DNA of 64,000 bases. Origin: Acidobacteriota bacterium. Lineage in GTDB: Bacteria; Acidobacteriota; Terriglobia; UBA7540. The notes under the pieces are model-generated. The model had not been told where the DNA came from. It worked only from the letters and a program-made list of their open reading frames with translations, and did no database searches. The stretch covers positions 22,699 through 86,698 of the forward strand of contig JAJYLL010000003.1 of NCBI GenBank assembly GCA_021787735.1, in the 5' to 3' direction. The position numbers were made by a program, and so were the translations under genes. Below, piece after piece: positions 36,729 to 59,954 of the stretch; position 1 is the stretch's first letter; each line of letters opens with the position of its first letter.

Positions 36729-36729
36729 A

Positions 36730-41248: not shown

Positions 41249-41887
41249 TCAGGCGGATGTCTTGGTCCCGCCGACTCCCAGCCGGGCAAGCACTGGTTCC
41301 GGGCAGCCGTTCCACTTGTCCTGCGGCTCGTTGCCGACATAAGGCAGGTCGCGAATCCCCGCCTGGCTGGTGAAGAAACCGCTGACGACAAGGTCGCGAA
41401 GCGTGTTGAAGAAGGCGACGGCGCTAGCGTCCTCAGGCGCAGCTTTCTTTGGGTAGGCAATGCGGTCAAGGATCTGCTTGTGCCGCGCGGCAGAGCAATC
41501 GGCAAAGTCGCAATTGAAAGACCGGTTGCTCTCCATGTCGAGCCACGTGAGCCCGCCGCAAATCTGGTCGAGGAGGGTTCCCCGCTTCAGGTCCAGCCAG
41601 TCGTCGATAAACTCCGGAACGCGGGCCTGCGTTGCGCTGCCTGAACGACCGTCAGCGGGAATGATCAGGTCCGAAAGAATGCGTAGCGTTTTCCACTCGT
41701 GAGGATTCAGGGTCTTGGGATGTTCGGGCACGCGGCCCTGCGCCGCGGTCTGTTGCGGAGCCGCGTCTGCTACCTGCGACGCGAATGGCGCAACCGATAC
41801 CAGCGCCGCCGCCGGCATGCCCGTCATCAGTTTCAAAATGTCACGACGTTCAAAACGAACACCGTTGGATATTTTCTTCCGGTTCAT
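41249..41887 (-). CDS. gluconate 2-dehydrogenase subunit 3 family protein (Tat signal)
   Basis: Twin-arginine leader FERRDILKLMTGMPAAALV. Conserved L..L.D.IIP.D......A....V.EFID. GAGGAGGAGAG precedes the ATG. Confidence 0.85.
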   Translation of the reverse strand: MNRKKISNGVRFERRDILKLMTGMPAAALVSVAPFASQVADAAPQQTAAQGRVPEHPKTLNPHEWKTLRILSDLIIPADGRSGSATQARVPEFIDDWLDLKRGTLLDQICGGLTWLDMESNRSFNCDFADCSAARHKQILDRIAYPKKAAPEDASAVAFFNTLRDLVVSGFFTSQAGIRDLPYVGNEPQDKWNGCPEPVLARLGVGGTKTSA

Positions 41888-41917
41888 CTCTCCTCCTCAG
41901 GCAGCTGCCAACTCGGC

Positions 41918-43624: not shown

Positions 43625-43705
43625 CGTTTTCTCCTGAAAATCAGATCGTTTCCCCGCTGCCGTGGCGCGCAACACGCTGTCGCCCACCGCGCAAGCCGGC
43701 ATTAA

Positions 43706-44926
43706 TTACTGGAGGTGAACCAGGCAAGCCTCGGCGCGGTTGTCTCCCTGGCTGTCAAACGAAATCGTTCCGGAAACCCCCGCAAAATTCCTGGTGGCCG
43801 AGACGTGATCGCGTACTCGGGCGCGGTTGGGTCCGGCATCACGCACGGCCTGTGCCACCAACCAAACGGCGTCGTAAGCCTCAAAGGCAACGGGACTCGG
43901 CCGCGCCCCAGTGGCCGCCTGGAAGCGGCGTGCAAAACTTTCACGGGAAGGCGTAGCATCCAATGCGGATGCCACCGTGTAAATGCCTACGCCCGAGGCA
44001 TCCTTTATGCCCGCCGTATTCAGGCGGTGAAATTCGAGTCCGGAACCCTTCTGCGCCGTCTCCTGTGATAGATAGATGGGCGCGTGGATTCCGACCGAGT
44101 GAAGGGCTTCCAGAAGTTTTCGGCCAATGTCGGCCTCTGTCCAAAACACGAATGCCTGAGGCGGTTGCTTCTTGATAAGCTTAAGCAGGGAGCCGGCGTC
44201 CGGCTGCAAAGGATTAATCATTACGGACGCCGGGGCCGGAGCGCCCAACTCTCGTGCGGCCTGGACAAATTCCTGTTCGCCTATGCGCCCATCATGGTCG
44301 CGTTCGGTAACCAGCACGACGTGCTGGAACCCGCGCGTGCGGTAGATATCACGGGCAATCAGGCGAGCCTGCTGAGTGTCGCTCGGGCCCAGGCGAAAAA
44401 TCCAAGGCAGATTGATCTGGGTCGTTGTCGGATCAGAGGAGAGCGTCAGGGTGGGAACACCGATCTTGTTGCCGATCTGCTCGCTCAGGTGCGCCGCCAC
44501 TCCATCAGCGCCGGTTACAATTGCAACGACTTTTTGCTGAATGACAAGGTGAATGATCTCGTCGTCGAGGATCCCCCAGGGGGGGACGCTCTCATCAGCG
44601 ATATCGAGAGAAAGATGAAGACCTCCTGGCAATGGCTCTCTCTGCGCATCAGCAAGCGCCATTTTCGCCGCCTGGACAATGGCCTCCCCATCGGCCTGCT
44701 GCGGACCGTGCATGGGCGCGAGAAGGCCGATGCGGATGGTCGGCCCTGCAAGATTGAAGGCGGCTTCTCTCCCCGGCCCCGCATACGTCACGCCGCTTGA
44801 CGCTATGGAGGCGTAGGGAACCTTGGGCGGACTCTGCTGCGCAAGGAGAAGTGTGGCGCCGACAAACAACGCGGTGGCGATTGTGCACCCCAGACACTTC
44901 CTCAAACTGTCGAACGATTCTCGCAT
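43706..44926 (-). CDS. periplasmic ABC-type substrate-binding protein (LivJ/K-like, Peripla_BP_6)
   Basis: Signal peptide, then IRIGLLAPM.G......G..I..A...A..D. The two-lobe type I PBP pattern is clear. Start is ATG 44926 or 44974. Confidence 0.85.
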   Translation of the reverse strand: MRESFDSLRKCLGCTIATALFVGATLLLAQQSPPKVPYASIASSGVTYAGPGREAAFNLAGPTIRIGLLAPMHGPQQADGEAIVQAAKMALADAQREPLPGGLHLSLDIADESVPPWGILDDEIIHLVIQQKVVAIVTGADGVAAHLSEQIGNKIGVPTLTLSSDPTTTQINLPWIFRLGPSDTQQARLIARDIYRTRGFQHVVLVTERDHDGRIGEQEFVQAARELGAPAPASVMINPLQPDAGSLLKLIKKQPPQAFVFWTEADIGRKLLEALHSVGIHAPIYLSQETAQKGSGLEFHRLNTAGIKDASGVGIYTVASALDATPSRESFARRFQAATGARPSPVAFEAYDAVWLVAQAVRDAGPNRARVRDHVSATRNFAGVSGTISFDSQGDNRAEACLVHLQ

Positions 44927-44981
44927 ATGGACTTCAAAAAGGGCCGTCAGACAACCAGGGGAAGCCTGATCCATCCTCTCC

Positions 44982-46406
44982 TTAGCGCATGGCGTTTAAC
45001 GGGTCGCCGTTTTTCCAATCCGTCCGCTGCTCAGGCCAGTAGACAAAGTGTCCGTCTCTGACCTCGGCAAAAGTCATCGGCGCAATGTTGTTCAATGTGT
45101 AGTCGAAAAACGCGGTTCCGCTCACGCCCTGGTATCGCTTCATTTCATAGTCGCGCAAGGCATCCATGATAAGGGCACGGTTCAGCCCGGCTTTGCGAAT
45201 CGCCGCGATGAGCATATTGGTGCCGTCGTACGCATAAGCAGCGTACGCGTCAGGCTCTTCGTGATAGCGATCAAGATATTGGCGCCGGAACGCGAGCCAT
45301 TCCGGGTTATTCCGATCAGGATTGATAGCGGAAAGCGCGAACAGACCGTTTGCAGCCGAACCAGCAATCTTAATGACTGAAGGATAAGCTATTCTGCTGC
45401 TTCCAAAAACCGGCTGGTTCATTCCCATCGCGCGCATCTGCTTCAGGATTAACGCTGCATCGGGTGCGTTGCCCCATAGAACCAAACCATCAATTCCGAA
45501 TCCCTTAAGCGTTCGCAACTGCTCTGAAAAATCCTTTGCTCCTCGTATATACTTCACCGCCACAACGGGCTGGTGTCCCAAGCGGCGAGCGCTGTTGAAG
45601 AATTCCTCGAACCCCATACGACCGTAGTGGCTGTTTTCGCGTAATAAGCCGACACGATGGAGCTTACGCTGGTTAAAAACATAATCGGCAAGAGCGTAAC
45701 CTTGCTGGCGATCGTCAGGGTAATTGTGGATCAGCCATGGAATGCGGGTTTCGGTAACGGTCGGGTCGGTCGTGGCTGTGTCGATGATGGGGACTTGGAG
45801 TTTCAAGGTAACGCGTAGCGCGATGTGGGTCGAGGCTGAATTAATCCCACCAACCATCGCCCAAACGTGCTGCTTGTAATACATATCCACGATGGCCATC
45901 GAAGCATTTCCCCAAAGTGGCGCATCATCGTAAACCTTCAAAGAGAATGGTTTTCCTTTGTAACCCCCTTGGGCGTTCGCGTTGTCAATGGCCAATTCAG
46001 TGCCGTGTAACATGTGAATTCCGTAAAGTGAATTGGGATTCCCTTCGGCGAGCAGGCTGGAAGGTGCGGTGGGCGGCGCGTTCCATGAGCCCCCATAAAC
46101 CTTGTAGGGAGTGGGGGCTTGGTCTAGCGGGCCCAAAAAGCCGATGTTGATCGTCTTCAGTGTGTTCAAGGCGGGCTCGGGAATGCTTCGTGCCGCGCCG
46201 TCATATTCCAGAGTGCTGGGGTCAAGATACCAGTTGTAGTAAGGCTTGCGAAACCGTCCGTAAGGCACCGCCGAAGGCGGCATGTTGGCATAACGCATCT
46301 TTTCCTGCGGTTTCTCCTGCGCAGGCGCCGAGGAAGGCGCCTGTGACCATACGGGCGTTGCCATCAGGCAGAATAGAACCACGACAAGTGTTCTGATCTT
46401 CATCAC
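44982..46406 (-). CDS. periplasmic ABC-type substrate-binding protein (LivJ/K-like, Peripla_BP_6), second copy
   Basis: Clear signal peptide MMKIRTLVVVLFCLMATPVWSQA. INIGFLGPL, then a type I PBP fold pattern. Confidence 0.85.
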   Translation of the reverse strand: MMKIRTLVVVLFCLMATPVWSQAPSSAPAQEKPQEKMRYANMPPSAVPYGRFRKPYYNWYLDPSTLEYDGAARSIPEPALNTLKTINIGFLGPLDQAPTPYKVYGGSWNAPPTAPSSLLAEGNPNSLYGIHMLHGTELAIDNANAQGGYKGKPFSLKVYDDAPLWGNASMAIVDMYYKQHVWAMVGGINSASTHIALRVTLKLQVPIIDTATTDPTVTETRIPWLIHNYPDDRQQGYALADYVFNQRKLHRVGLLRENSHYGRMGFEEFFNSARRLGHQPVVAVKYIRGAKDFSEQLRTLKGFGIDGLVLWGNAPDAALILKQMRAMGMNQPVFGSSRIAYPSVIKIAGSAANGLFALSAINPDRNNPEWLAFRRQYLDRYHEEPDAYAAYAYDGTNMLIAAIRKAGLNRALIMDALRDYEMKRYQGVSGTAFFDYTLNNIAPMTFAEVRDGHFVYWPEQRTDWKNGDPLNAMR

Positions 46407-46455
46407 TACCAGCCTCCCGCCGCTTGAAACTGAAAGCTGCTGCCGTCACGATTCC

Positions 46456-47343
46456 CTACGCAACGTGCGCTTTCTCCAGTTTGCTTTCCACGCGCCCGCA
46501 GGCATACCGGACGATTCTGCCCAGCGTTGTGGGATCAATTGCCTGTAATGCGTCACACCGGGGCAGCCCGGATGTGAAGTCCGCCACTTCGATGATCAGT
46601 CCCTGGCTGCCAAACTCGATGGCCGCCCGACTGGCGGGCTCGACCATCGCAGCTACACCCGTGGCGTGGCTTGGGTCCACGATCACCGGCAGAAAAGTAT
46701 GCGCCCTCACTGCGGGGATGACATTCAGGTCCAGCACGTAACGTGAGTATTCGCCGCTTGCGAAGGCCTTGATGCCGCGCTCGCACAGGACGATATCCAG
46801 GTTGCCCTGCTCGGCAATATATTCCGCCGCACCCAGCCACTCCACCAGGCTGGCGGCCATTCCTCTCTTCAGCAGGATGGGTTTGCCCGCGCGACCGGCT
46901 TCAGCCAGCAGCGAGTAGTTCTGCATGTTGCGCGAACCAATCTGGATCATGTCCGCGTATTCCGCAACCTGTTCCACTAGGCGAGTGTCCATCACTTCGG
47001 TCACCACCGGCAGGCCAGTTTCTTCACGCGCCTTGCTCAAGATGCGGAGGCCACCCTTGCCTGTACCCTGAAAATCGTGCGGAGACGTGCGAGGCTTGTA
47101 TGCTCCTCCACGTAACATGTCCGCGCCGGCCCGCTGGACCGCCCGGGCCACGCTGAGCGTTTGTTCCTCGTTTTCTACGGCGCAGGGACCGCCAATCACC
47201 ACCGGCCGGTCGCCGCCGAAACGCACACCGCGCACCTCAACCACCCGGGTGTCCGTCTCGCCATATTCCGGGTGACTTGCGCGGCACAAGAACGGACAGA
47301 TGCGCGGCAGATCAGAAAGGCTGACTTGTCCCGCAACCTTCAT
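46456..47343 (-). CDS. aroF: 3-deoxy-7-phosphoheptulonate (DAHP) synthase, type I-beta
   Basis: VIGGPCAVENEEQ, RGGAYKPRTSP..FQG, IGSRNMQN and VDPSH are DAHPS/KDO8PS-family motifs. Confidence 0.88.
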   Translation of the reverse strand: MKVAGQVSLSDLPRICPFLCRASHPEYGETDTRVVEVRGVRFGGDRPVVIGGPCAVENEEQTLSVARAVQRAGADMLRGGAYKPRTSPHDFQGTGKGGLRILSKAREETGLPVVTEVMDTRLVEQVAEYADMIQIGSRNMQNYSLLAEAGRAGKPILLKRGMAASLVEWLGAAEYIAEQGNLDIVLCERGIKAFASGEYSRYVLDLNVIPAVRAHTFLPVIVDPSHATGVAAMVEPASRAAIEFGSQGLIIEVADFTSGLPRCDALQAIDPTTLGRIVRYACGRVESKLEKAHVA

Positions 47344-47472
47344 GATTGCCCTCCTTTACCCGACTTGACACAATCAACAGGAACGGCTCGCGGAAAAGTA
47401 TCCGTCGGGCAGGCCCTTGCGGCGTTTCAAGTTCGCGGCGCCACAAAGGGCGCACGGCGCGAGTCCCTGCAG

Positions 47473-47985
47473 CTAACCCTTTTGTTCGGAGCCACGGTCG
47501 CTTTCAAAAATGACCATGGCTTCCATTTCAATCAGCAGGTCCGGCCGGCACAAGATGGCTTGAATTCCTGTGGACGCCGGAAGAGGATCCAATCCCTGCT
47601 GGTTGAAAAACTCCGTGCGAACTTCGTTGAAGGCGGCGTAATCCCGTTCGATGTCGCGAAGATAGCAAGTCGTTCGCACCACATCTTTCCAGGTTGCGCC
47701 CTCAGCCTCCAGCAAAGCAGTAATATTCTGGTAAGTCCTCCAGGTCTGCGCCCTGAAATCCCCCTCGTGAATGCTACGGCCGTATTCATCTACGCTGGCC
47801 GTCCCGGAAATCAACAGGATGGTCATACCCTTGATGTCCAGCCGCATGCCGCGCGAGAAGGACGATGGGCGGCCGTAACAGTAGGCTTCGTTAAGTACCT
47901 GGGGGGCACTGATGGCTTTCTTGGAGACTGGTTTGTGTTTTTGTTTTGCCGTGACGGCGTCAGTGCCTGTTTGAAGCTGACTCAT
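47473..47985 (-). CDS. RidA/YjgF/UK114 family protein
   Basis: ILLISGTASVD..G.......F..Q....Y.NI.ALLEAEGATWKDVV.TT.YL.D...Y..FNEVR..FF......PA.T. ATG 47985 preceded by AGGAGG. Overlaps the upstream gene by 26 nt. Confidence 0.85.
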   Translation of the reverse strand: MSQLQTGTDAVTAKQKHKPVSKKAISAPQVLNEAYCYGRPSSFSRGMRLDIKGMTILLISGTASVDEYGRSIHEGDFRAQTWRTYQNITALLEAEGATWKDVVRTTCYLRDIERDYAAFNEVRTEFFNQQGLDPLPASTGIQAILCRPDLLIEMEAMVIFESDRGSEQKG

Positions 47986-49120
47986 TGTTTTTTTCCTCCT
48001 TGTCGGACTGGCGAATGCCATGGCTCAAACCGCCAGCCGTAGCAACCCAGATGTCCTTTCCTTGAAATGCCATGTTGAGTATGTAGTTATGCACAATCGA
48101 GGTGGGTGATTCAATCGTGCGCTTGGAGCCATCCGGACGCGTGATGATGATCTCGCCACGCCCGAGTTTCACCGGCCTCGCGGTATCTAGAGCGCGCCAA
48201 TTTGCGGGACGATAGGTTACCCAGGTATTCGTTTTGAAATCGAGCTCACTCAGGCCTTTTTGCGTGCACGCCCAAACTTCGTTGCCACGCGTTTGGACTG
48301 CATTGATAAAATTGGAAGCCAGCCCGCTGTCTTTAGTAAGGTAGTTGTGCCAGTTGCGGCCGTCGTATCCGCTGAGGCCGAAATAGGTGCCCGCCCAGAA
48401 CATTTTGGTGGCCGGGTTATAGGCTATGCTGCTGACGATTATGTGGATCAATCCCTCGTTGCGGTAAAGCACGATCTCCATGGAACCGTCAGGGTCCGTG
48501 TACGGTCGCCAATAATGATGTTCAATGTCATAAACCACGACGCCGCCGCCCCACAGTGCCAAATACACCTTCTTCGGGCCGACGGCGACACCATACCCCC
48601 AAGGCTCTAAAAAAGGGGAATTCTGGTTGTTGAAAATCGTCCAGTTGCCCGTGTCGGTGTTCAGGCGGCTGAAACCCCCAGCCGTGGCGGCCCAAACGTA
48701 TTTCCCCTGGATTGCTACGGCATAAACCAAGTCGTTCGCAAGACCACTCGTCAGGTTAGTGTAGTTCTTGAACTGGCCGCCGGAGTAACGGCTGAGTCCG
48801 CCGAAGGTTCCCACCCAGACATCTCCGGTCTGGTGATCCACGGCAATGGCCATCACCGCCTGGCCCGGAAGGCCGTCGGCGGTGGTAAAAACCCTCCTTA
48901 CCCGGCCGTCCTCGATCAACACGAGACCGTGCGTGGTTCCCGCCCAGATGCGGTTGCCGTCAACGGCAACGGAAAAGACTTCGCCCTCCGGGAAGCCGTT
49001 GGCAGTTGTGTAATTCACCCATTTCGTGTAAAGCGGAGGGGTTTGGGCCTCAGCGACACCTATCGCCACCACGAGCAAGCCGGCGGTCAATAAGAAGGAT
49101 GCGCACAAAAGTCTTTTCAT
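47960..49120 (-). CDS. exported two-component-regulator-propeller (Reg_prop) repeat protein, stand-alone
   Basis: Sec signal MKRLLCASFLLTAGLLVVAIGVAEA. Repeated motifs of the form ...V.A.A.D...IWVGT..GLS.... Confidence 0.75.
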   Translation of the reverse strand: MKRLLCASFLLTAGLLVVAIGVAEAQTPPLYTKWVNYTTANGFPEGEVFSVAVDGNRIWAGTTHGLVLIEDGRVRRVFTTADGLPGQAVMAIAVDHQTGDVWVGTFGGLSRYSGGQFKNYTNLTSGLANDLVYAVAIQGKYVWAATAGGFSRLNTDTGNWTIFNNQNSPFLEPWGYGVAVGPKKVYLALWGGGVVVYDIEHHYWRPYTDPDGSMEIVLYRNEGLIHIIVSSIAYNPATKMFWAGTYFGLSGYDGRNWHNYLTKDSGLASNFINAVQTRGNEVWACTQKGLSELDFKTNTWVTYRPANWRALDTARPVKLGRGEIIITRPDGSKRTIESPTSIVHNYILNMAFQGKDIWVATAGGLSHGIRQSDKEEKNNESASNRH

Positions 49121-49127
49121 GTTTCCC

Positions 49128-51095
49128 TCATAAGGTTTTCAAAAACTCAATCAAGTCGTTCAACTGGATCTTACTCATGTCAGAGGTGATACCGTGTTTA
49201 TCGTTAGGATTGAATTTGGTCCAGATCCCTTCCAGCGTCAGCGCTTTGCCGTCATGGAGATACGGCGGCCTCATCCAGACGCCTTGGAGTTGAGGCACAT
49301 CGAAATCCTTTATGGTGTCGTACTTTGTTGAGTTCCCAACATCCATCCGCACCCTCGAAGTGTAGTGCGTTAGCGGAGCGTGGCAGTAGTAGCAACGATC
49401 GTACTCCGGTATGATGGTCCCATTGTTGGTTGTTGTCCGGAAGAAAATCTCCCGGCCGCGTTCCTGCGCCGCCGTCAGATGACCATCCGCCGCAAGGTGC
49501 GGGTTGGGCGGCAGTTTGAGCGAGTCAATGTAAGACACCAGATCTTTCACCTGCTCATGACTGAAACCTTGCGACCTGAAAACATACATGGCCGTCCGCG
49601 GACCGTCTTGCGTTTCGAGGTTCGGATTCATTCCATTCCACTTGAAAGGCGAGGTCCCGGAAATATCGAGCAGCGTCCGATTCTCCACAACGTCGCGGCC
49701 CAACTCCGGAGTTTCCATACTCCACGCCAGGCCATCCTCAAACCCTTCGTGGGGATGACAACTGGCACATGCCAATTGTCCCTGGTAGCAAAACCTTGCG
49801 TCGAAAAACAACTGTTGGCCGCGCCGCAGCGCTGTAATCTCTTTTGGACCGCCTAAGTCAATAGTTGATGAAACCTTCAAGTGCTGCAGGTCAACCACGC
49901 TGACGGTATCGTCGGTGCGGTTTGCAACATAGGCAAAACGGCTGTCCGGTGAAACCACAACGCAGGTCGGGTTGCGTCCAACGTCCAGCCTCTTCTCAAC
50001 AAACTGTTGGGCGGAATCCATACGGTGCGCAAGATCCTCCGCGCCATCTGACAGCGCCCCCTTCAACAGTTGGTTGAGTTTCGCAATGTTGATAATGGAA
50101 ACAACGTTTGCTCCGGACGACGTCACCAGGGCCAGCCGTCCATCCGGCGTTGAAGCAGAACCAAACCCATCCGCATAGTAATGGTCAATGTCATCCAGCA
50201 ATACTTCTCTTACCTGCGGCGACTGAACGCCCGAATGTTCCGGTCTGATGATTGCCAATCCATTGGTCACGTACCATCCCTGCTGGATCTGGACCAGCGG
50301 AACCAGGTTGTGGGGCTGCTGGAACGGAATCAGCAGGTATCCGCCCTCCTGTGCCGGCAGTTGCGCGATATACCGAAGCTGAATGGCACCGGGAATCAAG
50401 ATGCGGTCGGTTACAATTTGCTTCGCGGTGTTCACCACGGTCAACTGCGCGACAGGAGGCTCATCAGGTGGCGCCAGATGCGCAAGAAGATTTGAAACAT
50501 ATACCCATTTCCCATCGCGGGAAAGGGCAACATATTCGGGAAAATGTCCAGCATCAAGCCGCTTGATTTCTTTCCCTGTCGAAAGATCAATCACGGAGAT
50601 GTTGTCGCCCAGCGTATTCGCCGTGTATAAAAACTTTCCCGCCCGGTCCGTGGTGATACCCACCGGGTCCCAGCCGGTTTTGAGGTTCCGAAGGACCCGA
50701 AGTGAATCAGCATCGATTTCGCTGACCGTATTATCCCACTCATTTGTAACGTAAAGAGTCTTTCCGTCCGGGGAAAGCGCAATCCCCTCAGGTCTGGTGC
50801 CTACCTGAACGCTCCCAATCACGCTTCGAGAGCGCGTATCAACAACCAGCACCGCGTCGCTGGCTTCACAAACCACGTATAGCCGCTTGCCATCGGGCGA
50901 AAGCTTCAAGGCAATGGGATCCAGATAACGGGGGGTGGCACCATCAAGGCCCACGGGACTCTGGGGCGAAGCATCCGTAAGCGAGCGTTGCAATCCCAAC
51001 CCACAAATAATCGCCAGAATAACGATCGCCGCTCTCAAAAGGGATGTCCACATCCAGTTTGTCCAACTTCTTGTTTGCTCTGAGTGCATGCTCAT
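49128..51095 (-). CDS. YVTN-type beta-propeller fused to a di-heme cytochrome c peroxidase/MauG-like domain
   Basis: N-terminal TM anchor. Blades of the form LSPDGK.LYV.NE.DNTVS.ID. C-terminal GQQLFFDARF...LACASCHP (CASCH 49755-49769) and RCYYCHAP (49380-49394), then FDVPQL.GVW.RPPYLHDG. ATGA overlap with the upstream gene. Confidence 0.85.
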   Translation of the reverse strand: MSMHSEQTRSWTNWMWTSLLRAAIVILAIICGLGLQRSLTDASPQSPVGLDGATPRYLDPIALKLSPDGKRLYVVCEASDAVLVVDTRSRSVIGSVQVGTRPEGIALSPDGKTLYVTNEWDNTVSEIDADSLRVLRNLKTGWDPVGITTDRAGKFLYTANTLGDNISVIDLSTGKEIKRLDAGHFPEYVALSRDGKWVYVSNLLAHLAPPDEPPVAQLTVVNTAKQIVTDRILIPGAIQLRYIAQLPAQEGGYLLIPFQQPHNLVPLVQIQQGWYVTNGLAIIRPEHSGVQSPQVREVLLDDIDHYYADGFGSASTPDGRLALVTSSGANVVSIINIAKLNQLLKGALSDGAEDLAHRMDSAQQFVEKRLDVGRNPTCVVVSPDSRFAYVANRTDDTVSVVDLQHLKVSSTIDLGGPKEITALRRGQQLFFDARFCYQGQLACASCHPHEGFEDGLAWSMETPELGRDVVENRTLLDISGTSPFKWNGMNPNLETQDGPRTAMYVFRSQGFSHEQVKDLVSYIDSLKLPPNPHLAADGHLTAAQERGREIFFRTTTNNGTIIPEYDRCYYCHAPLTHYTSRVRMDVGNSTKYDTIKDFDVPQLQGVWMRPPYLHDGKALTLEGIWTKFNPNDKHGITSDMSKIQLNDLIEFLKTL

Positions 51096-52801
51096 TTCCC
51101 GTTGCTCTTCAAGGCGACCGGAGACGGACTTTCCGGCTCTTTGACCGTCAGGATCTGATCAGCCTTGATGTGTTCGAGCGTCTGGACAGTTCCGCTAGGC
51201 CATCGAATGATCAACTTCTCCACCTCGGTGTTTTGTCCCAGTCCAAAGTGAGGTCTGGGATCACTTTGCGAAAGGTAGCCGGTTTCAGAGACGGCCTGGA
51301 CGTATTGGTGCAAATCGCCGGCCACGGCTTCAAGACTGGCGCCGAAACCGTCTCGATTGCTCCGCGTCCCCACCAGTTTCACGGTCAGCCAATGGTTGCG
51401 TTTTCCAGCAGGTGGTGTGTTGTGAAGCAGAATCCCCTTGCCGCCCAGAGTCGTAATGAACGCATCAATATATCCGTCATTGTCATAATCGCTAAAACAT
51501 GCGCCGCGACTGACGTGCCGTTGTTCAAAAAAGCTTCCAGCTTGAGTTGATACGTCTGTAAAGGTCCTGTTGCCGTTGTTGCGCAACAGGCTGCTTTCCA
51601 TCGGGATGAGCCAAGTGAGTCCGCCGTTGACAATAAAAATATCTTTCCAGCCGTCGTTATCGAAGTCGAAGAATCCATCTCCCCATGCAACGTATTGGCC
51701 TGACACGCTGCCGATACCAGCGTCGTCCGTCATGTCCAGGAAAAAGCCTCCCGCCTTACCGGGATTGTGGAACAAACGATGGAAATCCGCGTCGGAAACA
51801 AACAGGTCCTGCCAGCCATCATTGTCGTAGTCGCCGAAAACCGGTCCCATGGAGGTCGTTGCCTCGCCGTTCTGTCCATAGGCAACGTTGACTTCTACGG
51901 CGACATTCGTAAAAGTGCCGTTGCGGTTGTTGTGATAGAGGAAACTTGGCATAGTGTCATTGGCAACATAGATGTCAGGCCAGCCATCGTTGTCGTAGTC
52001 GCCTACGGTAATTCCCATCGCCCTGCCGGCCTGGAGACCAATCCCCGATTCCTTTGAAACGTCTGTGAAGGTTCCGTTGCCGTTGTTATGAAACAGGCGG
52101 TTGAATTCGGGTTCGTAGTTCAACGGGCCGGGATAGTGCTTGGCGCCGTAAAACTGCCGGTAGCTGGGAACAAATTTCAGATAATTGCCGACAAAGAGAT
52201 CCAGCTTCCCATCGCGGTCGTAATCCAGAAAGGCCGTCCCAACACCGAAAAAGGGATTTTCCACTCCGGCGTCCGCCGTAACATCGGTGAACGTCCCATC
52301 TCCATTGTTATGATATAGAATGGCAACGTTATATCCGGTGACGTAAATATCCTGATAACCATCGTTATCAAAGTCGCCGACTGTAACGCCGGTTCCCATC
52401 CCTTTTCCCGGCACGCCGGCCTGTGCCGTAACGTCCGTGAAAGTGCCGTCGCCGTTGTTGCGATAAAGATGGTTCGTCGCGTCCATACCATCCGGAGCGG
52501 AGTGGTCAGTAAGACCCTCGACATAGCGGCCGTTGACAACATAAAGGTCGAGGAGGCCATCGTTGTTGTAATCGAACCAGGCGCAGCCTGAGCCAGTTCC
52601 TTCAAGGATGGAACTCAACTCCTTCTCCCCAAACGAGTGCGTGAAGTTGATGCCGGATTTCGCAGTGATATCTTCATATTGAGGAAGCGCGAGTGCAGTC
52701 CTATGCTGCGGAGCAACGCTCGCTCCCAGAAGCCTGCGAGCCGCCCATAGAGGTCCGCCAGCGGCAGCCAGCGTCAACAATTTTCGTCGAGAAATCCTCA
52801 T
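51092..52801 (-). CDS. CRTAC1 family protein (FG-GAP/VCBS repeats + ASPIC/UnbV C-terminal domain), Tat-like leader
   Basis: SRRKLLTLAAAG leader. Repeated DYDNDG..D..V.N motifs. C-terminal RSNRDGFGA......G......V.....YLSQSDPRPHFGLG.....E.L.IRWPSG. Confidence 0.88.
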   Translation of the reverse strand: MRISRRKLLTLAAAGGPLWAARRLLGASVAPQHRTALALPQYEDITAKSGINFTHSFGEKELSSILEGTGSGCAWFDYNNDGLLDLYVVNGRYVEGLTDHSAPDGMDATNHLYRNNGDGTFTDVTAQAGVPGKGMGTGVTVGDFDNDGYQDIYVTGYNVAILYHNNGDGTFTDVTADAGVENPFFGVGTAFLDYDRDGKLDLFVGNYLKFVPSYRQFYGAKHYPGPLNYEPEFNRLFHNNGNGTFTDVSKESGIGLQAGRAMGITVGDYDNDGWPDIYVANDTMPSFLYHNNRNGTFTNVAVEVNVAYGQNGEATTSMGPVFGDYDNDGWQDLFVSDADFHRLFHNPGKAGGFFLDMTDDAGIGSVSGQYVAWGDGFFDFDNDGWKDIFIVNGGLTWLIPMESSLLRNNGNRTFTDVSTQAGSFFEQRHVSRGACFSDYDNDGYIDAFITTLGGKGILLHNTPPAGKRNHWLTVKLVGTRSNRDGFGASLEAVAGDLHQYVQAVSETGYLSQSDPRPHFGLGQNTEVEKLIIRWPSGTVQTLEHIKADQILTVKEPESPSPVALKSNGK

Positions 52802-52808
52802 GTGTTCC

Positions 52809-54263
52809 TCATTGTTTTGCTGATTGCTGATTCGAAGGCACGCCGACGGGAGTCGGCGTGTCAGAACGTTTCAGTGCCAGCGGCCAGTGGTCTGTCGGCG
52901 CCAAGGCCTTGCTTTCATGGCAGCCCAGGCAGGGAACATCTTCACCAGTTCGCGCCCAGATCCAGCTTTTCTGCGCATGGATCACAGATCCTTTGGTGCT
53001 CAGCAATTCGAACCGGATAGGGTAGTCGGCAGGTACCTTGATGTAAAAAGAGCCGTCGCTTTCCACCGGAGCGTCACCAAGAATTCGTTCAGTGTGGTGG
53101 TCCGGCTGGAGTGCAATCACTCGCACCTGCGCAATGTGGCCCGCCAGACGTCCGCGGGGCGCATCGGCCGACAAATAAGAGTTCAGGCAAACAATCCGTC
53201 CGTAGTCACGATCGGGGTGGAGAATGGTCCAGTAATAGAGCGGAGCAGGACGTGGCTCCAACGGCACAGCGTCAATGCTCGAGAATTTGGGATTGCGGTA
53301 GACCGTTTTCTCGACGGTTTTGGTCGCAAAATTGAACACGTAAAGGCCAAATGTCCCCGCCGGGCCGGCATCTGACTTGGACACGATCAACCGGTCTCCA
53401 TCCAGCGGCTGCGCTGAGGCATAGACGGAGCCGCCAGCCGTGAGCACGGAATTGTGCAGGGCTCCGGGCCGGATCCATGCAAGCTGCCCACCCATCGCCC
53501 GGGCCTCAGGGGCCGCCCTCTTTACAAACAAAACGGTTCCGTCGCTCAATTCCACCGCTGCACTACGCACAGCGTTCGGCCTGCTGTTCCACCTGAACGG
53601 GGTGAGGCCCGAACCGTCCGGCTGCAGCGTATAAAACATGCGAGATCCACTACCCTGGCTACCAGGTACGAGCGTTGTCTTGGCCGAGACAAGAATGCGT
53701 CCGCTGCCCAGAACCGTTTCCACCTCGTAATCGCCCGGGCCAAATGTGATGGCATGAGCACCGGAGCCGTCCTCTTGTGAGACATAGACAGCTGAATTCT
53801 GTTGGCTTCCTTTTCCCGCAACCATCGTAAATACAATCTGGCTTTGCGGCAGGTAAGCAGGCTGACCGCAATCCGCCGGGCAGTGCGTAAGCTGCCGCTG
53901 GCCGGAACCGTCAGCGTTCATTTCCCAGATTTGCCATCTCGAGCCGCGAGTCTTTTGTCCAGCAAACAGGACGTGGGAGGCATCAAATGAGACTCGTGGG
54001 TCGGCCGCGGCAAAAAATCCGGGAGTCAGATCAGAAGCAGAAGAGGAGGGACTTCCCAGCGCAAGACGCGCCAGGCGGCTTCCCTGAGGGAAACGCTCCG
54101 CCAGTCCGGTTGATGAGACCGTAGGGGCCTCAACAAAGATGATCGGAGGAAGAGGACCTTTGGCTGCCGGCTGAGATTCGGTCAAGGTGGTTTTCGGCGT
54201 GCCAACAACCAGCCCCAGGCAGATAAGTACGACAATAAGGTTAAGAGTTCGGAAAAATCTCAT
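52809..54263 (-). CDS. HzsA-related protein (PD40-like propeller + hydrazine-synthase-alpha-middle-domain-like region with one CxxCH)
   Basis: Signal-anchor MRFFRTLNLIVVLICLGLVVG. Propeller-like body. C-terminal DGSFYIKVPADYPIRFELLSTKGSVIHAQKSWIWARTGEDVPCLGCHES (CLGCH 52917-52931) resembles, from memory, the PAD.P..FQLLD......M.SW...RPGE...C.GCHE pattern of HzsA-related proteins. The track start 54326 is possible. Confidence 0.7.
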   Translation of the reverse strand: MRFFRTLNLIVVLICLGLVVGTPKTTLTESQPAAKGPLPPIIFVEAPTVSSTGLAERFPQGSRLARLALGSPSSSASDLTPGFFAAADPRVSFDASHVLFAGQKTRGSRWQIWEMNADGSGQRQLTHCPADCGQPAYLPQSQIVFTMVAGKGSQQNSAVYVSQEDGSGAHAITFGPGDYEVETVLGSGRILVSAKTTLVPGSQGSGSRMFYTLQPDGSGLTPFRWNSRPNAVRSAAVELSDGTVLFVKRAAPEARAMGGQLAWIRPGALHNSVLTAGGSVYASAQPLDGDRLIVSKSDAGPAGTFGLYVFNFATKTVEKTVYRNPKFSSIDAVPLEPRPAPLYYWTILHPDRDYGRIVCLNSYLSADAPRGRLAGHIAQVRVIALQPDHHTERILGDAPVESDGSFYIKVPADYPIRFELLSTKGSVIHAQKSWIWARTGEDVPCLGCHESKALAPTDHWPLALKRSDTPTPVGVPSNQQSAKQ

Positions 54264-54460
54264 CAAGCCAATATCCGTTCTGAAAACACCACAGCGGCAG
54301 CTGGCGCCGGACGTGTACTTCCACACCCAGCACCCTTATTAAGTTGAACGACAGGTAAAGTACCGCGATGATCTTTCCTTACTCAGACCCAATGACGCCG
54401 ACGAACGGTTATCATTAGGCAAGAGGGTTGGTTCGTCGATGACATCCGGCAGATTTCCAC

Positions 54461-54474
54461 ATGACAAATGTCAA
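54461..54474 (-). promoter_or_regulatory. Crp/Fnr-type box candidate TTGAC-ATTT-GTCAT
   Basis: Contains the TGA-N6-TCA core of the FNR/CRP consensus (TTGAT-N4-ATCAA). Lies between the Crp/Fnr gene stop (54549) and the HzsA-related gene start. No convincing -10 found at class II spacing. Confidence 0.3.
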
Positions 54475-54548
54475 ACGCCAGCCTCCTAATTGTTTTATGT
54501 ATAAGGAATAGTGGCTTTATCCGAGGCAGGTTGCTATCGTTGAAGGCA

Positions 54549-55325
54549 TCAGCGACGTGCTGTCGCCTCCAGAGCGCGCAGATCCTGGATGACAAGGTGG
54601 CGGCCACGCTTTTCGATCAGCCCTTCCTGCCGCAGCGAATGCCAGGTTCGGCTTACAGTTTCCGGAGACAATTCCAGGATTTCTGCAATTTCCTGGCTCG
54701 TAAGAGGCAGGACTAGAGAACAGGAACTCGCGGGGCCCGTTTCGCCAGCTGAAACAAGCGACAGGACAAAGGTGGCCACGCGCATACGGGCGTCCTTAAA
54801 GCTCATATTGGTCACCTGGGCCCTGACCTCGGCGACCTCGCTCACGAGCAAGCGAATCATATCTAGGGAAATGTCGGGGTTTGAGCGCAGAAAAGCAAAG
54901 AGCTGATCGCGCGGTACCGAGCAGATTTCCGAGTCTTCCAGGACGACAGCGGTCAGGGGATACCTTTCTTCGTTTAAAGCCTCCAAGCCGAAGAGATCAC
55001 CAGGAAACAAGATACGCGTGATGCGTTCCTTGCCGTTCTCGAGCGACTTGACCAGCTTGACCAGGCCCGCATTTAAGCCAAAAATATGCCGCGCGGCCCC
55101 GCCTTCAAAAAACAGAATCTGGTTTCTGTGGAATTGCGAGGGGCAAAATATACAGGAAAAATTCTTTACCTGTTCGTCCGAAAGGCTGCGGAAAAGCATA
55201 CTGGAGAGGATATGGCAATTAGGACAACTTGTTTTCAAGATTTCCTCCCGGCTTCGCTTTGGAATCGCTCTGCCATCGACCGGGAAAGCCTTCGGTTGCC
55301 GCTCAGCCTCCCAAGTCGTAAGCAT
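54549..55325 (-). CDS. Crp/Fnr family transcriptional regulator with two N-terminal CxxC pairs
   Basis: Beta-roll (ILFFEGGAARHIFGLNAGLVKL) and HTH (LTSQEIAEILELSPETVSRTWHSL). Cys pairs CPNC and CIFC plus one more Cys. Start uncertain: ATG 55325 versus 55199, and the latter would remove the first pair. Confidence 0.85.
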   Translation of the reverse strand: MLTTWEAERQPKAFPVDGRAIPKRSREEILKTSCPNCHILSSMLFRSLSDEQVKNFSCIFCPSQFHRNQILFFEGGAARHIFGLNAGLVKLVKSLENGKERITRILFPGDLFGLEALNEERYPLTAVVLEDSEICSVPRDQLFAFLRSNPDISLDMIRLLVSEVAEVRAQVTNMSFKDARMRVATFVLSLVSAGETGPASSCSLVLPLTSQEIAEILELSPETVSRTWHSLRQEGLIEKRGRHLVIQDLRALEATARR

Positions 55326-56310: not shown

Positions 56311-58011
56311 ATGGACAACGAAAAAAGGTTCTTCATAGCTATCGCCCTGTCATTTATCCTGTTCATGATATGGTGGGTCATGTTTCTCAAGAACCTGCCC
56401 CCCACACCGAATTCGTCTGAGGCAACGCAGTCTGCCGCTCAGCAGGCCACCGGACAGCAAGGCTCCGCAAAGGCGGAAGCTCCTAAGCTTCCGGTGCCGC
56501 CGCAGATTCCCGTTGTAGAGGGTCAGCAGGCCCACGACATTACAGTCGAAAATGATCTTTACAAGATCACTTTTTCCACCCAGGGGGGGGTGGTTAAGAG
56601 TTGGATTCTGAAGAAGTATGAGGATGCCAGCGGCAAACCCCTCGACGTTGTGAATCCCGCCGCCTGCAAGCAACTTGGATATCCGATGAGCCTGCGGACC
56701 ACGGACGATTCGCTCAACCAGAAAGTGAACCAGGCGCTTTACGCAGCGCAACCGGTCGAGACTACGCTGCAAGCCCCTGCAACACTGGAACTTACTTACA
56801 GCGACGGACACGTGCAAGTCCAGAAGAAGTTCACCTTCGGGTCGGACTATATGATGCACGTCGACGTCAGCGTGGCGCAGGACCAGCACTACGTTCCCGT
56901 CAGGGTGGCATGGGTAGGAGGGTTCGGCGACCATTCCCTTCCCCAACTGGAGGAATTCGGTCAGAGCAAGGTGGCCTACGGAATCAACGACAAGCTTGAA
57001 ACCACTGATCTTCCCAAAATCAAGAACGAGCTGACCCAGTCCGGCCCGCTGGATTTTGCCGGGCTTGAAGACCGGTACTTTGCCGGTATCTTCTTCCCTG
57101 AATCTTCGGACCAGGTCTTTGGCGCCGGGTACACACAATGGAAGCCTGCCAATTGGAAAGAAAAAGAGCTGCCCGGTGCCGGATATGCGGAAATGGGGAG
57201 CTCTATGGCGCAGCCGGTAAAATTCAATCTTTTTGTCGCCCCTAAATCCATGGATGTCCTGGATTCAACGCATCCATCTCTGAGTGGACTTGTGGATTTC
57301 GGCTGGTTCAGTTTCATTGCCAAACCGCTGTTTCTTGCGTTGCGCTACATCTATGAGCACTGGGTGCACAATTACGGCTGGGCCATTGTGATTCTGACCA
57401 TCATTCTGAACATGGCCCTGTTCCCCCTGAAACTCAAGAGCATTCGCTCCGCACAGGAAATGCAGCGCATCGCGCCGCTGGTGAAGAGCATCCAGGATCG
57501 CTACAAGCAGTACAAGTTCAACGACCCGCGCAAGGCTCGAATGAACCAGGAAGTGATGAAGCTTTATCAGGACCATGGGATCAACCCGCTTGGGGGATGT
57601 CTGCCCATGCTGCCCCAGTTGCCCATCCTTTATGGGTTCTACGAATCGTTGGAAACGCCTTTTGCATTCCGTCACGCGCCCTGGATCTGGTGGATTAAAG
57701 ACTTGTCTATGCCCGATCCTTCCCGTATCATGGGTCTGCCGATTCCCATCCTGCCCGTAATTATGATGGTAAGCATGTTCTTCATGCAGAAGATGACGCC
57801 GATGATGACGGCCGATCCGAATCAGAAGCGCATGATGATGATTATGCCTTTGGTGTTCGGCATCATGTTCTTCCACCTGGCTAGCGGCCTGGTTCTCTAC
57901 TTCCTGGCGGCGAATCTGGTCGGCATTGTCCAACAGCTCATCATCAACCGCTTTATCACGCCGAAACAGCCGCCGCTGGTGCCACCGAAGGACGTCGAGG
58001 CAAAAGCATAG
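56311..58011 (+). CDS. yidC: membrane protein insertase YidC
   Basis: N-terminal TM, large periplasmic domain, then the conserved core WGWAIVILTIILNMALFPL, MQRIAPLVKSIQDRYK, GINPLGGCLPMLPQLPILYGFY. Confidence 0.93.
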   Translation: MDNEKRFFIAIALSFILFMIWWVMFLKNLPPTPNSSEATQSAAQQATGQQGSAKAEAPKLPVPPQIPVVEGQQAHDITVENDLYKITFSTQGGVVKSWILKKYEDASGKPLDVVNPAACKQLGYPMSLRTTDDSLNQKVNQALYAAQPVETTLQAPATLELTYSDGHVQVQKKFTFGSDYMMHVDVSVAQDQHYVPVRVAWVGGFGDHSLPQLEEFGQSKVAYGINDKLETTDLPKIKNELTQSGPLDFAGLEDRYFAGIFFPESSDQVFGAGYTQWKPANWKEKELPGAGYAEMGSSMAQPVKFNLFVAPKSMDVLDSTHPSLSGLVDFGWFSFIAKPLFLALRYIYEHWVHNYGWAIVILTIILNMALFPLKLKSIRSAQEMQRIAPLVKSIQDRYKQYKFNDPRKARMNQEVMKLYQDHGINPLGGCLPMLPQLPILYGFYESLETPFAFRHAPWIWWIKDLSMPDPSRIMGLPIPILPVIMMVSMFFMQKMTPMMTADPNQKRMMMIMPLVFGIMFFHLASGLVLYFLAANLVGIVQQLIINRFITPKQPPLVPPKDVEAKA

Positions 58012-58559: not shown

Positions 58560-59954
58560 ATGATGAAAGAGGACACCATCGTGGCCATAGCAACGCCACC
58601 GGGCCGCGGCGGCATTGGGGTGGTTCGCCTTTCAGGCAGGGATGCAATCGAGATAGCTTCGCAACTGATCCGGCCTGCAAAGGCGCCACCGGAAGTGCAA
58701 CGCTCAGCGCTGGGAAAATTCATGGACCCCCATACCGGGAAGGTTCTGGATGAGGTCCTGGTCACAATTTTCCGCCATCCGCATTCTTACACGTGCGAGG
58801 ACGTTGTCGAGATTTCCTGTCACGGTTCGCCGGTGATCCTGCGGTATCTGGTGGAATGCTGTCTTGAGTGCGGTGCTCGCGCGGCAGAGCCTGGCGAGTT
58901 TGCCATGCGCGCTTTCCTCAACGGCCGCATTGACCTGACCCAGGCCGAAGCCATCCGTGACCTGATTGAATCGCAGACTCTCTACCAGGCAAGGGTTGCC
59001 GCCACACAACTTGCAGGCTCGCTTTCCGCGCGGCTGAAACCGCACAAGCAGGCCTTACTGGACCTGATTGCCCGGCTTGAAGCAGGTATCGATTTTGCTG
59101 ACGACGATGTTGATGTAATGGACTGGGAGGACCTGCTGGCTCAACTCGATGTGATAAGGGCTGACATCGAAACAATGGTTGCAGGCTACGCCTACGGCAG
59201 GATTGTTCGTGACGGTCTCCGACTGTCTGTGGTGGGCCGCCCGAACGTTGGCAAATCCAGTCTCTTTAACCGCCTGCTGAATATGGACCGCGCCATCGTC
59301 ACCGAAATACCCGGAACAACAAGAGACCTGGTAACCGAGAGCGCGTCGATCGGCGGAATTCCCGTTCATCTTGTGGATACGGCAGGCATCCGCGTCACGA
59401 CAGATGCGGTGGAAAGAATCGGAGTGGAACGTACTCATCAGGCCATGGCGGATTCTGACCTGCGACTGCTTGTGGTGGACACATCGCAGGACTGGACCGA
59501 GGACGATCAGGAACTGCTGCGCAAAACGCGCAGCATGGGATCCCTCCTGGTTTGTGCCAACAAAGCCGATTTGCCCGAACGAACCAGCAAGGCCGCAATC
59601 GAGCGGGCGATTCTCGGCGAGAACGGCGAAGCGCCTGCCCAAGTCGTCGTAACTTCCGCCTTGACCGGACAAGGGATCGAGGAACTTCGCGACAGGATTA
59701 TGGAGGTAGCCGGCGCCGTAAACAGCTCCGGACAGGAAGGCGAACTGGTAACTAACTTACGACACCAGCAACTGCTGAAAGAATCTCTCGCAGCCCTTGA
59801 CCGATGCCGTGAGGCCACGAAACAGCGGGTGCATCACGAGATGCTGCTTATTGATCTTTACGATGCGCTGCGGCCGCTCGACACGATAACCGGCGCTACC
59901 GACGTTGAAGACATACTGGGTATCATCTTCTCCCGCTTCTGCATTGGGAAATAA
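58560..59954 (+). CDS. mnmE: tRNA uridine-5-carboxymethylaminomethyl modification GTPase MnmE
   Basis: DTIVAIATPPGRGGIGVVRLSG, G-domain GRPNVGKSSL.N, DTAG, NKAD and C-terminal FCIGK. Confidence 0.95.
   Translation: MMKEDTIVAIATPPGRGGIGVVRLSGRDAIEIASQLIRPAKAPPEVQRSALGKFMDPHTGKVLDEVLVTIFRHPHSYTCEDVVEISCHGSPVILRYLVECCLECGARAAEPGEFAMRAFLNGRIDLTQAEAIRDLIESQTLYQARVAATQLAGSLSARLKPHKQALLDLIARLEAGIDFADDDVDVMDWEDLLAQLDVIRADIETMVAGYAYGRIVRDGLRLSVVGRPNVGKSSLFNRLLNMDRAIVTEIPGTTRDLVTESASIGGIPVHLVDTAGIRVTTDAVERIGVERTHQAMADSDLRLLVVDTSQDWTEDDQELLRKTRSMGSLLVCANKADLPERTSKAAIERAILGENGEAPAQVVVTSALTGQGIEELRDRIMEVAGAVNSSGQEGELVTNLRHQQLLKESLAALDRCREATKQRVHHEMLLIDLYDALRPLDTITGATDVEDILGIIFSRFCIGK

Follow-up and report, generated by a model that had tools for sequence, protein, structure and literature searches.

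What is the function of a gene cluster that brings together the fold types of anammox hydrazine synthase (HZS) outside an anammox genome? Such a cluster is found on the minus strand of a 64,000-nucleotide stretch (the window) of contig JAJYLL010000003.1 from an Acidobacteriota bacterium (assembly GCA_021787735.1). Its genes (41249–54326) are designated A to J in this report, and the gene of a Crp/Fnr-family regulator is located upstream of gene A. A preliminary description of this DNA had noticed the first five genes, compared their products with HZS by fold type only, and proposed an uncharacterised periplasmic heme/propeller complex acting on a small N-oxide, hydroxylamine-like, or peroxide substrate. 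Here it is found that the products of A and C are true sequence homologues of the HZS subunits, beyond a shared fold, and that the cluster is larger than was supposed. With a probability of roughly 40%, we propose that A and C form a periplasmic terminal reductase that serves as the cytochrome partner of the dehydrogenase encoded by I and J and is induced at low oxygen.

Relationship of genes A and C to hydrazine synthase

The deduced product of gene A consists of an N-terminal membrane anchor, a TolB-like propeller, and an HZS_alpha middle domain, and has one CxxCH motif (CLGCH) at residue 466 of the 505-aa form that starts at GTG; the 484-aa form that starts at ATG corresponds to the database protein P0271. 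The profile search that had been suggested in the preliminary description gave an HZS_alpha match of 68 bits (cut-off, 26.6). When A and C were searched against all PDB sequences with phmmer, HzsA (5c2v_A) was the sole match of A (E = 1.6e-23), and the alignment covered the propeller and the sequence up to the heme alpha-I CxxCH, stopping at residue 561 of the 782 in the chain. The gene C product has an N-terminal anchor, a 7-bladed YVTN propeller, and two heme motifs, CASCH at residue 443 and CYYCH at residue 568, and matched Pfam CCP_MauG with 43 bits (cut-off, 25.6). It was aligned with HzsB (5c2v_B) over the full length, residues 15–347 (E = 1.3e-35), and with HzsC (5c2v_C) in two blocks (E = 3.8e-22). 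The similarity of C to HzsC amounted to 87 bits, whereas that to cytochrome c peroxidase (CCP) and MauG was approximately 30 bits. The top NCBIfam matches were hydrazine_alpha for A (111 bits; cut-off, 800) and the hydrazine_BC fusion model for C (203 bits; cut-off, 1250), and C also matched hydrazine_beta (159 bits; cut-off, 560) and hydrazine_gamma (99 bits; cut-off, 625).

AlphaFold2 models of A and C, which were built from 30–31 homologues, were compared with known structures using Foldseek. The A model (pLDDT 79.8) retrieved 5c2v_A/D first (E = 4e-25, TMq 0.69) and TolB next (E = 1e-10), and the C model retrieved 5c2v_B (E = 2.6e-30, TMt 0.85). The runners-up of the two models (TolB and generic YVTN/WD40 propellers) were 10–15 orders of magnitude behind. 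Because HzsA, HzsB, and HzsC are the best solved relatives both by sequence and by fold, the homology to HZS is real; the relation suspected earlier therefore stands, and its restriction to fold type does not. Gene A is of the same stock as hzsA, and gene C is a fusion of an HzsB-like part and an HzsC-like part. Approximately 650 database proteins matched A, and NCBI names some gene A-type proteins 'HzsA-related protein'. More than 4,000 database proteins matched C at E ≤ 1e-10, some of them through generic YVTN propeller repeats only.

The residue numbering of HZS was taken from the literature (PMC12758564) and checked on the PDB-chain alignments, which gave offsets of 39 for gamma and 27 for alpha; the gamma CxxCH at chain residues 63–67 is Cys102–His106. 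Residues C443, C446, H447, W486, R500, R507, C568, C571, H572, and H634 of C are invariant. R500 and R507 match 'gRdpgfvfRs' of HzsC, and His634 matches the second-heme ligand position in 'dmHG' of HzsC. These residues are shared with HzsC and not with CCPs, and the alignment suggests that the second heme of C is bis-His ligated as in HzsC. The lone cysteine C380 of A (505-aa numbering; C359 of P0271), in the sequence GRIVCLNSY, is invariant from Acidobacteriota to Bacteroidota and may ligate a heme or belong to a metal site; D424, Y428, W455, R459, and E462 near the heme motif are likewise invariant across both phyla.

In its general plan, the cluster resembles HzsABC of Kuenenia stuttgartiensis (PDB 5C2V). 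A homologous alpha propeller with a heme middle domain, a 7-bladed beta propeller, and a homologous di-heme CCP-like gamma part with the first-heme CxxCH, two pocket arginines, and a putatively bis-His second heme are present, the location is of the periplasmic type, and beta and gamma are fused as in Scalindua. However, the alpha-II bis-His heme domain is absent from A, which ends 35 residues past its only CxxCH, and a ligand of the Tyr591 type is absent as well, there being no Tyr in the 35-residue tail after CLGCH. The HZS arrangement in which heme alpha-I is on Tyr591 and His587 is diverted to a Zn site is thus unmatched in A. In C, the position of the gamma-Cys165 heme cross-link ('vCgr' in HzsC) falls in a gap with no Cys nearby, and that of gamma-His144 is occupied by the invariant W486, as in CCP/MauG. 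The cut-offs of the four NCBIfam HZS equivalog models were all missed by A and C. The cluster also differs from the HZS genes in having a CRTAC1 gene between the subunit genes, alpha before beta-gamma, and extra accessory genes, and in lying outside an anammox genome context. Because the residues that define HZS are missing, the cluster is predicted not to encode a hydrazine synthase and to make no hydrazine.

That this is nevertheless a genuine hydrazine synthase, or another N–N bond-forming enzyme outside anammox bacteria, is extremely improbable, even though A and C are homologous to all three HZS subunits and co-located as in anammox operons. Against it stand the lack in A of the alpha-II domain and of a Tyr replacing Tyr591, the lack in C of Cys165 and the Trp at His144, the distance of the NCBIfam scores from their cut-offs (111/800 for A and 203/1250 for C), and the cultured flavobacterium Lutimonas vermicola among the carriers, and the same verdict has been reached for these clades (PMC12758564). 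It is also opposed by the absence, noted in the preliminary description and upheld here, of multihemes of the hydroxylamine oxidoreductase/hydrazine dehydrogenase type within the 64-kb window. Neither further multi-heme proteins nor anammox or other N-cycle genes besides the HZS homologues were found in the window, the remaining genes being ordinary housekeeping or transport genes. CxxCH in real genes was confined to A (one) and C (two), with CPNCH of the regulator counted as part of its cysteine set.

Clusters of this kind have been described. In 2023, hzsA-like genes beside fused hzsBC-like genes were reported in Phycisphaerae, and a wider HZS-like family was suggested (PMC10732223). Hagglund et al. 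(Genome Biol Evol, December 2025; PMC12758564) sorted co-located alpha and beta-gamma homologues into clades I–IV and proposed no function for them. In their analysis, the order in clades I and II is alpha, CRTAC1, and beta-gamma, followed by two binding-protein genes; alpha is short in clades II and III; Ser590/Tyr591 are missing, with a two-residue gap in all clade I–III homologues; Cys165 is present in clade I only; and Trp is found at His144. The present locus shares with clade II the order alpha, CRTAC1/FG-GAP, fused beta-gamma (A-B-C), a short alpha without the alpha-II heme and the last ~100 residues, exactly two heme motifs in beta-gamma, Trp at gamma-His144, no gamma-Cys165, and two substrate-binding-protein genes (G and H) downstream. 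The locus therefore belongs to the described clade II HZS-homologue clusters, and the existence of this cluster type is not new; the word 'uncharacterised' in the preliminary description holds for the function and not for the cluster type. New here are the larger conserved unit (41249–54326), the minimal operons, the pairing of regulator and box, and the Rid-like protein without its catalytic Arg. A term search of the main text of PMC12758564 found no mention of GMC, gluconate, RidA, or Acidobacteri-, and that text is also without Reg_prop, 3-deoxy-7-phosphoheptulonate (DAHP) synthase, an FNR-type regulator or box, and minimal alpha/beta-gamma/GMC/small-subunit operons.

The conserved unit, its dehydrogenase pair, and its regulator

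The neighbourhood sample consisted of 34 genome loci fetched with C as the probe, two long contigs, and several distant representatives, and all window proteins were mapped onto these loci; several distant contigs were too short for their flanking genes to be judged. The nearest relatives of the locus are metagenome-assembled genomes (MAGs) labelled Terriglobia or Acidobacteriota. The order A, B, C, D, (E), (F), G, H, I, J is kept in approximately 28 Acidobacteriota loci, G and H are paired in 26 loci, and J directly follows I in 28. This recurrence, to which a rearranged Bacteroidota form is added, far exceeds chance, and the conserved linkage predicted in the preliminary description is real. 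The open reading frame (ORF) list confirmed the five packed genes behind the Cys-bearing regulator, and the junctions follow from the coordinates: there are 7-nt gaps between A and B (52802–52808) and between C and D (49121–49127), a 4-nt overlap of B and C (51092–51095), and a 26-nt overlap of D and E (47960–47985) if E starts at 47985. The five-gene core thus held, but its end at the RidA gene did not, since the conserved unit of ~13 kb continues to 41249 through the genes of a DAHP synthase, two LivJ-like proteins, a GMC flavoprotein, and a Tat subunit. The gaps after E are 129 (E/F), 49 (F/G), 7 (G/H), 3 (H/I), and 30 nt (I/J).

Compact operons of A, C, I, and J alone were found in three genomes (L012, L021, and L023). 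In the Bacteroidota form, which includes the cultured Lutimonas vermicola IMCC1616, the order is B, A, C, D, E, G, G', extra CRTAC1-like genes are present, no GMC gene is present, and C has one extra N-terminal CxxCH. In a multi-heme form (L038), CRTAC1 and Reg_prop accompany a C with 10 hemes, together with two binding proteins. Among 35 diverse full-length representatives, C has 2, 3, 4, 6, or 10 heme motifs; the extra modules in other lineages comprise eight c554-type hemes, one N-terminal heme, or four C-terminal hemes. The conserved core is made up of A, C, CRTAC1, Reg_prop, and a pair of binding proteins, frequently joined by the Rid-like protein, and the lineages attach differing electron-transfer modules to it. 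This variety fits a core that needs an outside electron supply, as HZS itself does. A rule that a two-heme C always has an adjacent GMC gene and an extra-heme C never has one was upheld only in part, two-heme C genes without GMC being found in L030 and L044.

Extra CRTAC1-like genes, some of them fused to tetratricopeptide repeats, flank the cluster in many genomes of both phyla (L001 19185–20726; L002 1460–5170; L033 2985–6317, 16228–19791, and 19784–21436; L038 9567–13280), so that the tie of CRTAC1 to the cluster extends past the single gene B. In some MAG contigs, genes B, I, and H are split in two ORFs (L002 8225–9941; L025 16757–18431; L035 7149–8283); these are probably frameshift assembly errors and not real pseudogenes.

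The best PDB relatives of gene I included 6a2u_B (E = 5e-49) and 7w2j_A (E = 2e-44). Residues C239, C245, and C249 of I, which are invariant in 30 orthologues, align with C212, C218, and C222 of the Burkholderia cepacia glucose dehydrogenase (BcGDH), which bind a 3Fe-4S cluster that passes electrons to the cytochrome subunit (PMC6719666). Gene I encodes no signal peptide, and the gene J product has a twin-arginine motif (RRDILK) conserved in 29 sequences; J is predicted to be the Tat hitch-hiker partner of I. The pair is like the BcGDH and Gluconobacter fructose dehydrogenase complexes in its GMC subunit with the 3Fe-4S Cys triad and in its Tat hitch-hiker small subunit. Unlike those complexes, I/J has no gene for a tri-heme cytochrome c subunit in the window or in the related loci, where only A and C carry CxxCH. 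In addition, the gene order is large then small subunit, His105 of the covalent FAD link is Ser in I, and the pair is set within an HZS-homologue cluster.

The regulator scored 90 bits against the NCBIfam Fnr subfamily, below the cut-off of 228. Its residues C34, C37, C58, and C135 are invariant in 12 orthologues; C34 and C37 form a CxxC motif, the spacing is unlike that of E. coli FNR, and C135 lies at what we take to be the position of Cys122 of E. coli FNR. The regulator gene was located upstream of A in 11 related loci, and in 10 of these 11 a box, TTGACnnnnGTCAT or a sequence with at most one mismatch to TTGA-N6-TCAA, was found between the regulator gene and A. In loci that lack the regulator gene, the region upstream of A is practically free of the box. 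These results support a direct control of the cluster by the putative sensor, in this sub-lineage only. A promoter and terminator scan of 39.5–55.6 kb yielded sites no more numerous than in shuffled sequence. A second Crp/Fnr-family regulator (cNMP_binding and HTH_Crp_2; 29512–30348, minus strand) is encoded 25 kb away.

Accessory proteins and genomic surroundings

The features of the locus are listed in Table 1. All domains named in the preliminary description (HZS_alpha, FG-GAP/ASPIC, YVTN with CCP_MauG, Reg_prop, and Ribonuc_L-PSP) were recovered in Pfam and NCBIfam scans. The periplasmic location assigned there to the first four products was also borne out by a hydrophobicity and motif check of the leaders, which indicated anchors in A and C, a Tat leader in B, and a Sec leader in D. 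A and C are thus predicted to be membrane-anchored on the periplasmic side.

Table 1. Features of the HZS-homologue cluster and its upstream region in the window
Feature	Position	Strand	Domain or other basis
Crp/Fnr-family regulator	54549–55325	-	Pfam cNMP_binding + HTH_Crp_2; Cys C34, C37, C58, C135
FNR/FixK-type box TTGACATTTGTCAT	54461–54474	-	211 nt upstream of gene A ATG
Gene A, HzsA-related	52809–54263 (ATG) or 52809–54326 (GTG)	-	HZS_alpha, single CLGCH
Gene B, CRTAC1-family	51092–52801	-	FG-GAP_3 x5 + UnbV_ASPIC, Tat leader
Gene C, fusion of HzsB-like YVTN propeller and HzsC-like di-heme domain	49128–51095	-	YVTN/Lactonase + CCP_MauG
Gene D, Reg_prop beta-propeller	47960–49120	-	Pfam Reg_prop, Sec leader
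Gene E, Rid-family	47473–47985 or 47473–48021	-	Ribonuc_L-PSP, 71 bits
Gene F, type I-beta DAHP synthase, cytoplasmic	46456–47343	-	NCBIfam NF006421
Gene G, LivJ-like periplasmic binding protein	44982–46406	-	Peripla_BP_6, 172 bits; Sec leader
Gene H, second, more diverged binding protein	43706–44974	-	Peripla_BP_6, 129 bits
Gene I, GMC flavoprotein dehydrogenase, BcGDH/fructose-dehydrogenase type	41918–43702	-	3Fe-4S Cys triad, PDB matches
Gene J, Tat-signal small subunit, Gluconate_2-dh3 family	41249–41887	-	PF13618, 90 bits

The gene B product matched Pfam FG-GAP_3 with 184 bits and UnbV_ASPIC with 74 bits and has the Tat motif SRRKLL. In the PDB, it is related to human cartilage acidic protein 1 alone (9etn_A, E = 1e-22), and a literature search on bacterial ASPIC/UnbV/FG-GAP proteins gave no functional lead. 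Among PDB entries, D is most closely related to a periplasmic sensor propeller from a hybrid two-component system of Bacteroides (4a2l_A, E = 9e-24), and D follows C in the Acidobacteriota form of the cluster as well as in the Bacteroidota and multi-heme forms.

Gene E, which from 47985 corresponds to the 170-aa database protein P0404, encodes the most conserved protein of the set (77–100% identity among the top 120 homologues). Two of its motifs, NEAYxYxxPSSFSR and LPASTGIQA, are conserved across Acidobacteriota and Bacteroidota, and the protein has a conserved N-terminal extension and no signal peptide. The score against TIGR00004 was 56.7 bits (cut-off, 106). The catalytic Arg in 'PAR' of PH0854 is aligned with Ser ('PAS') in E, and this replacement is invariant in 19 of 19 orthologues from two phyla. 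The missing residue is equivalent to Arg105 of E. coli RidA and is needed for imine hydrolysis. The earlier assignment of E to the Rid family is retained; however, because the catalytic Arg and an export signal are lacking, the 'RidA' gives weak support for the periplasmic imine or reactive-nitrogen chemistry that had been read from it. A reading of E as a chorismatase was rejected, as the FkbO/Hyg5 model was matched with 27.6 bits against a required 325 and no chorismatase was found among the PDB relatives.

Gene F scored 353.8 bits against the NCBIfam model NF006421 of 3-deoxy-7-phosphoheptulonate synthase (cut-off, 335), and an assignment as KdsA was rejected on account of this score. It is a variable member of the cluster, present in 17 related Acidobacteriota loci. 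A DAHP synthase gene occurs in three lineages, namely in Acidobacteriota, inside the cluster of a Cyclobacteriaceae MAG (L031, 5021–5719), and beside a distant two-heme cluster (L044, 5613–6629). Why a periplasmic heme system should retain a cytoplasmic DAHP synthase, which catalyses the first step of aromatic biosynthesis, is not obvious.

The G product has a conserved N-terminal extension of ~100 aa, and its best PDB match was 4gnr_A (E = 7e-28). Compared with LivJ (2liv), Y18, S79, A100, T102, and Y150 are kept, and Y202 and E226 are replaced by N and S, respectively. The kept residues presumably form the carboxylate half of the site, with Y202 and E226 presumably holding the alpha-amino group. 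Among the weak PDB matches of H are 4ey3 and 4evq, binding proteins of Rhodopseudomonas palustris. No transporter genes were found near G and H.

Just upstream of the regulator gene, yidC (56311–58011) and mnmE (58560–59954) are located divergently on the plus strand, and the same yidC neighbourhood was found in L003, L011, and L026; in this lineage, the cluster adjoins a conserved housekeeping block. After J lies a gene for a 7-bladed lactonase of the 6-phosphogluconolactonase type without a signal peptide (39972–41084, minus strand), found elsewhere only in the four close relatives L003, L004, L008, and L035. The lactonase may serve to hydrolyse a lactone product of the GMC enzyme, or it may be a mere neighbour. 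Beyond it, an efflux operon of the CusA/CzcA resistance-nodulation-division type (permease, adaptor, and TolC-like outer-membrane factor) occupies 33633–39215 on the minus strand. A pair of neighbouring PD40-repeat propeller proteins and the radical SAM protein that comes after them (25156–27476 and 27693–28778, plus strand) are apparently unrelated to the cluster. An Rfam Acido-Lenti-1 small RNA was detected at 24129–24178 on the minus strand (38.4 bits; gathering score, 37); like the nearest relatives of the locus, it points to an uncultured member of the Acidobacteriota as the source of the DNA.

Proposed function and its alternatives

In the proposed model, a sugar- or alcohol-type substrate would be oxidised by the periplasmic FAD/3Fe-4S dehydrogenase I/J, and the A/C heme-propeller complex would be its terminal reductase. 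Electrons would pass from FAD to the 3Fe-4S cluster, on to the bis-His second heme of C, and through the conserved Trp to the first heme of C, where a small oxidant would be reduced; among the candidates, peroxide is closest to the chemistry of CCP, and nitric oxide (NO) or hydroxylamine is closest to that of HZS. The product, or a second step, may be handled at the single canonical heme of A. Accessory, scaffold, or ligand-delivery roles would fall to the CRTAC1-like, Reg_prop, and LivJ-like proteins, and in this lineage the operon would be switched on by the four-Cys FNR-type sensor when oxygen is scarce. We infer the coupling of I/J to A/C from the gene neighbourhood, because I and J follow the cluster in ~28 loci, A, C, I, and J form minimal operons, the 3Fe-4S triad is kept, and A and C are the sole c-type cytochromes in the window. 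Peroxide is plausible because of the CCP-like Trp and of the putative FNR-type control of the cluster, the E. coli periplasmic peroxidase YhjA being under FNR control as well (PMC10301912), and NO or hydroxylamine is plausible because of the HzsC-like pocket residues. The N-oxide, hydroxylamine, and peroxide substrates proposed so far are guesses, none of which is strongly favoured by the evidence.

Several points weigh against this proposal. The tie of I/J to A/C comes down to gene adjacency, and pairs of a GMC protein and a small subunit may often occur elsewhere with no cytochrome gene beside them, which would weaken the argument from the missing cytochrome. Since a two-heme C occurs without a nearby GMC gene in L030 and L044 and the Bacteroidota clusters are also without GMC, the dehydrogenase is an add-on and not a universal partner. 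The heme ligation of C is read from alignments, and in the C model the propeller is confident and the di-heme domain has a pLDDT below 50. The position that in CCP is occupied by what we take to be the catalytic Glu is Ser in C, which disfavours classic peroxidase chemistry, and the missing gamma-Cys165 disfavours NO reduction of the HZS type. Finally, B, D, G, H, the Rid-like E, and the DAHP synthase F are left without a real role in the proposal.

The likeness of C to di-heme CCP and MauG/MbnH opens another possibility. C shares with these proteins two c-hemes in a CCP_MauG domain, the inter-heme Trp (W486, on 'WDGR' of CCP), the PY(L/F)HDG motif, and a putative FNR-type control as in YhjA. 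MauG and MbnH install protein-derived cofactors in partner proteins. With H2O2 or O2 as the oxidant, the di-heme domain of C might oxidise an organic compound that G/H deliver, such as an aromatic acid or another carboxylate, or it might install a protein-derived cofactor in A, B, or D, with the GMC enzyme acting on the same substrate or in the same pathway and not as a donor. Such an oxidative system, the main rival of the proposal, which we consider unlikely, has in its favour the invariant Trp where HzsC has His, the weak NCBIfam matches of C to MauG and MbnH, and the site of G, which keeps the carboxylate half of the LivJ site and loses the alpha-amino holders, with H weakly resembling 4ey3/4evq. 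The DAHP synthase recurring in three lineages and the weak chorismatase matches of E would both hint at aromatic metabolism, but the latter are far below threshold (27.6 versus 325 bits). By alignment, moreover, the second heme is bis-His as in HzsC and not His/Tyr (MauG) or His/Met (CCP), where Tyr and Met are presumably the distal ligands; C further differs from these proteins in having another residue at the Met position, in its fusion to a 7-bladed propeller, and in the Ser at the Glu position. No protein bearing a known cofactor motif emerged as a candidate substrate, and the variable extra-heme modules of the relatives fit an electron input better than an oxidation driven by peroxide. 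A mainly non-catalytic envelope complex for sensing or scaffold assembly, whose propellers, binding proteins, and hemes would sense a ligand or redox state and for which the GMC pair would be an unrelated neighbour, appears very unlikely. Hybrid two-component systems do contain the sensor propellers nearest to D, no transporter genes accompany the binding proteins G and H, and beta-propellers, a typical kind of interaction module, account for four of the products. Nevertheless, no kinase, transducer, or output domain was found in the ~40 loci examined, C keeps a di-heme domain of the catalytic type with invariant pocket residues, the minimal A/C/I/J operons hold none of the putative sensing parts, and the adjacency of I and J is too consistent for an accident.

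The terminal-reductase proposal can be extended further. A/C might be a new kind of periplasmic terminal reductase, hard-wired through a 3Fe-4S cluster to a sugar or alcohol dehydrogenase and performing hydroxylamine/NO-type or peroxide chemistry in common aerobic or microaerobic soil Acidobacteria, and a living relative of the ancestor enzyme of HZS; in this full form, the claim is quite doubtful. If this full claim holds, A/C would also provide an unrecognised route of reactive-nitrogen turnover in soils, and the conserved partners (CRTAC1, Reg_prop, and the LivJ-like and Rid-like proteins) would belong to a multi-propeller machine without a characterised counterpart. The dehydrogenase, the four-gene operons, the putative FNR-type control, and Lutimonas vermicola IMCC1616 as a cultured carrier of the related Bacteroidota form make the coupling of I/J to A/C a testable electron-transfer hypothesis. 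To our knowledge, hydrazine synthase was long believed to be without relatives, and the HZS-homologue clusters are the only handle on its evolution. Because the family is large and highly conserved in soil Acidobacteriota, as shown by the 77–95% identity of the Rid-like protein to its top homologues, it is probably of ecological relevance.

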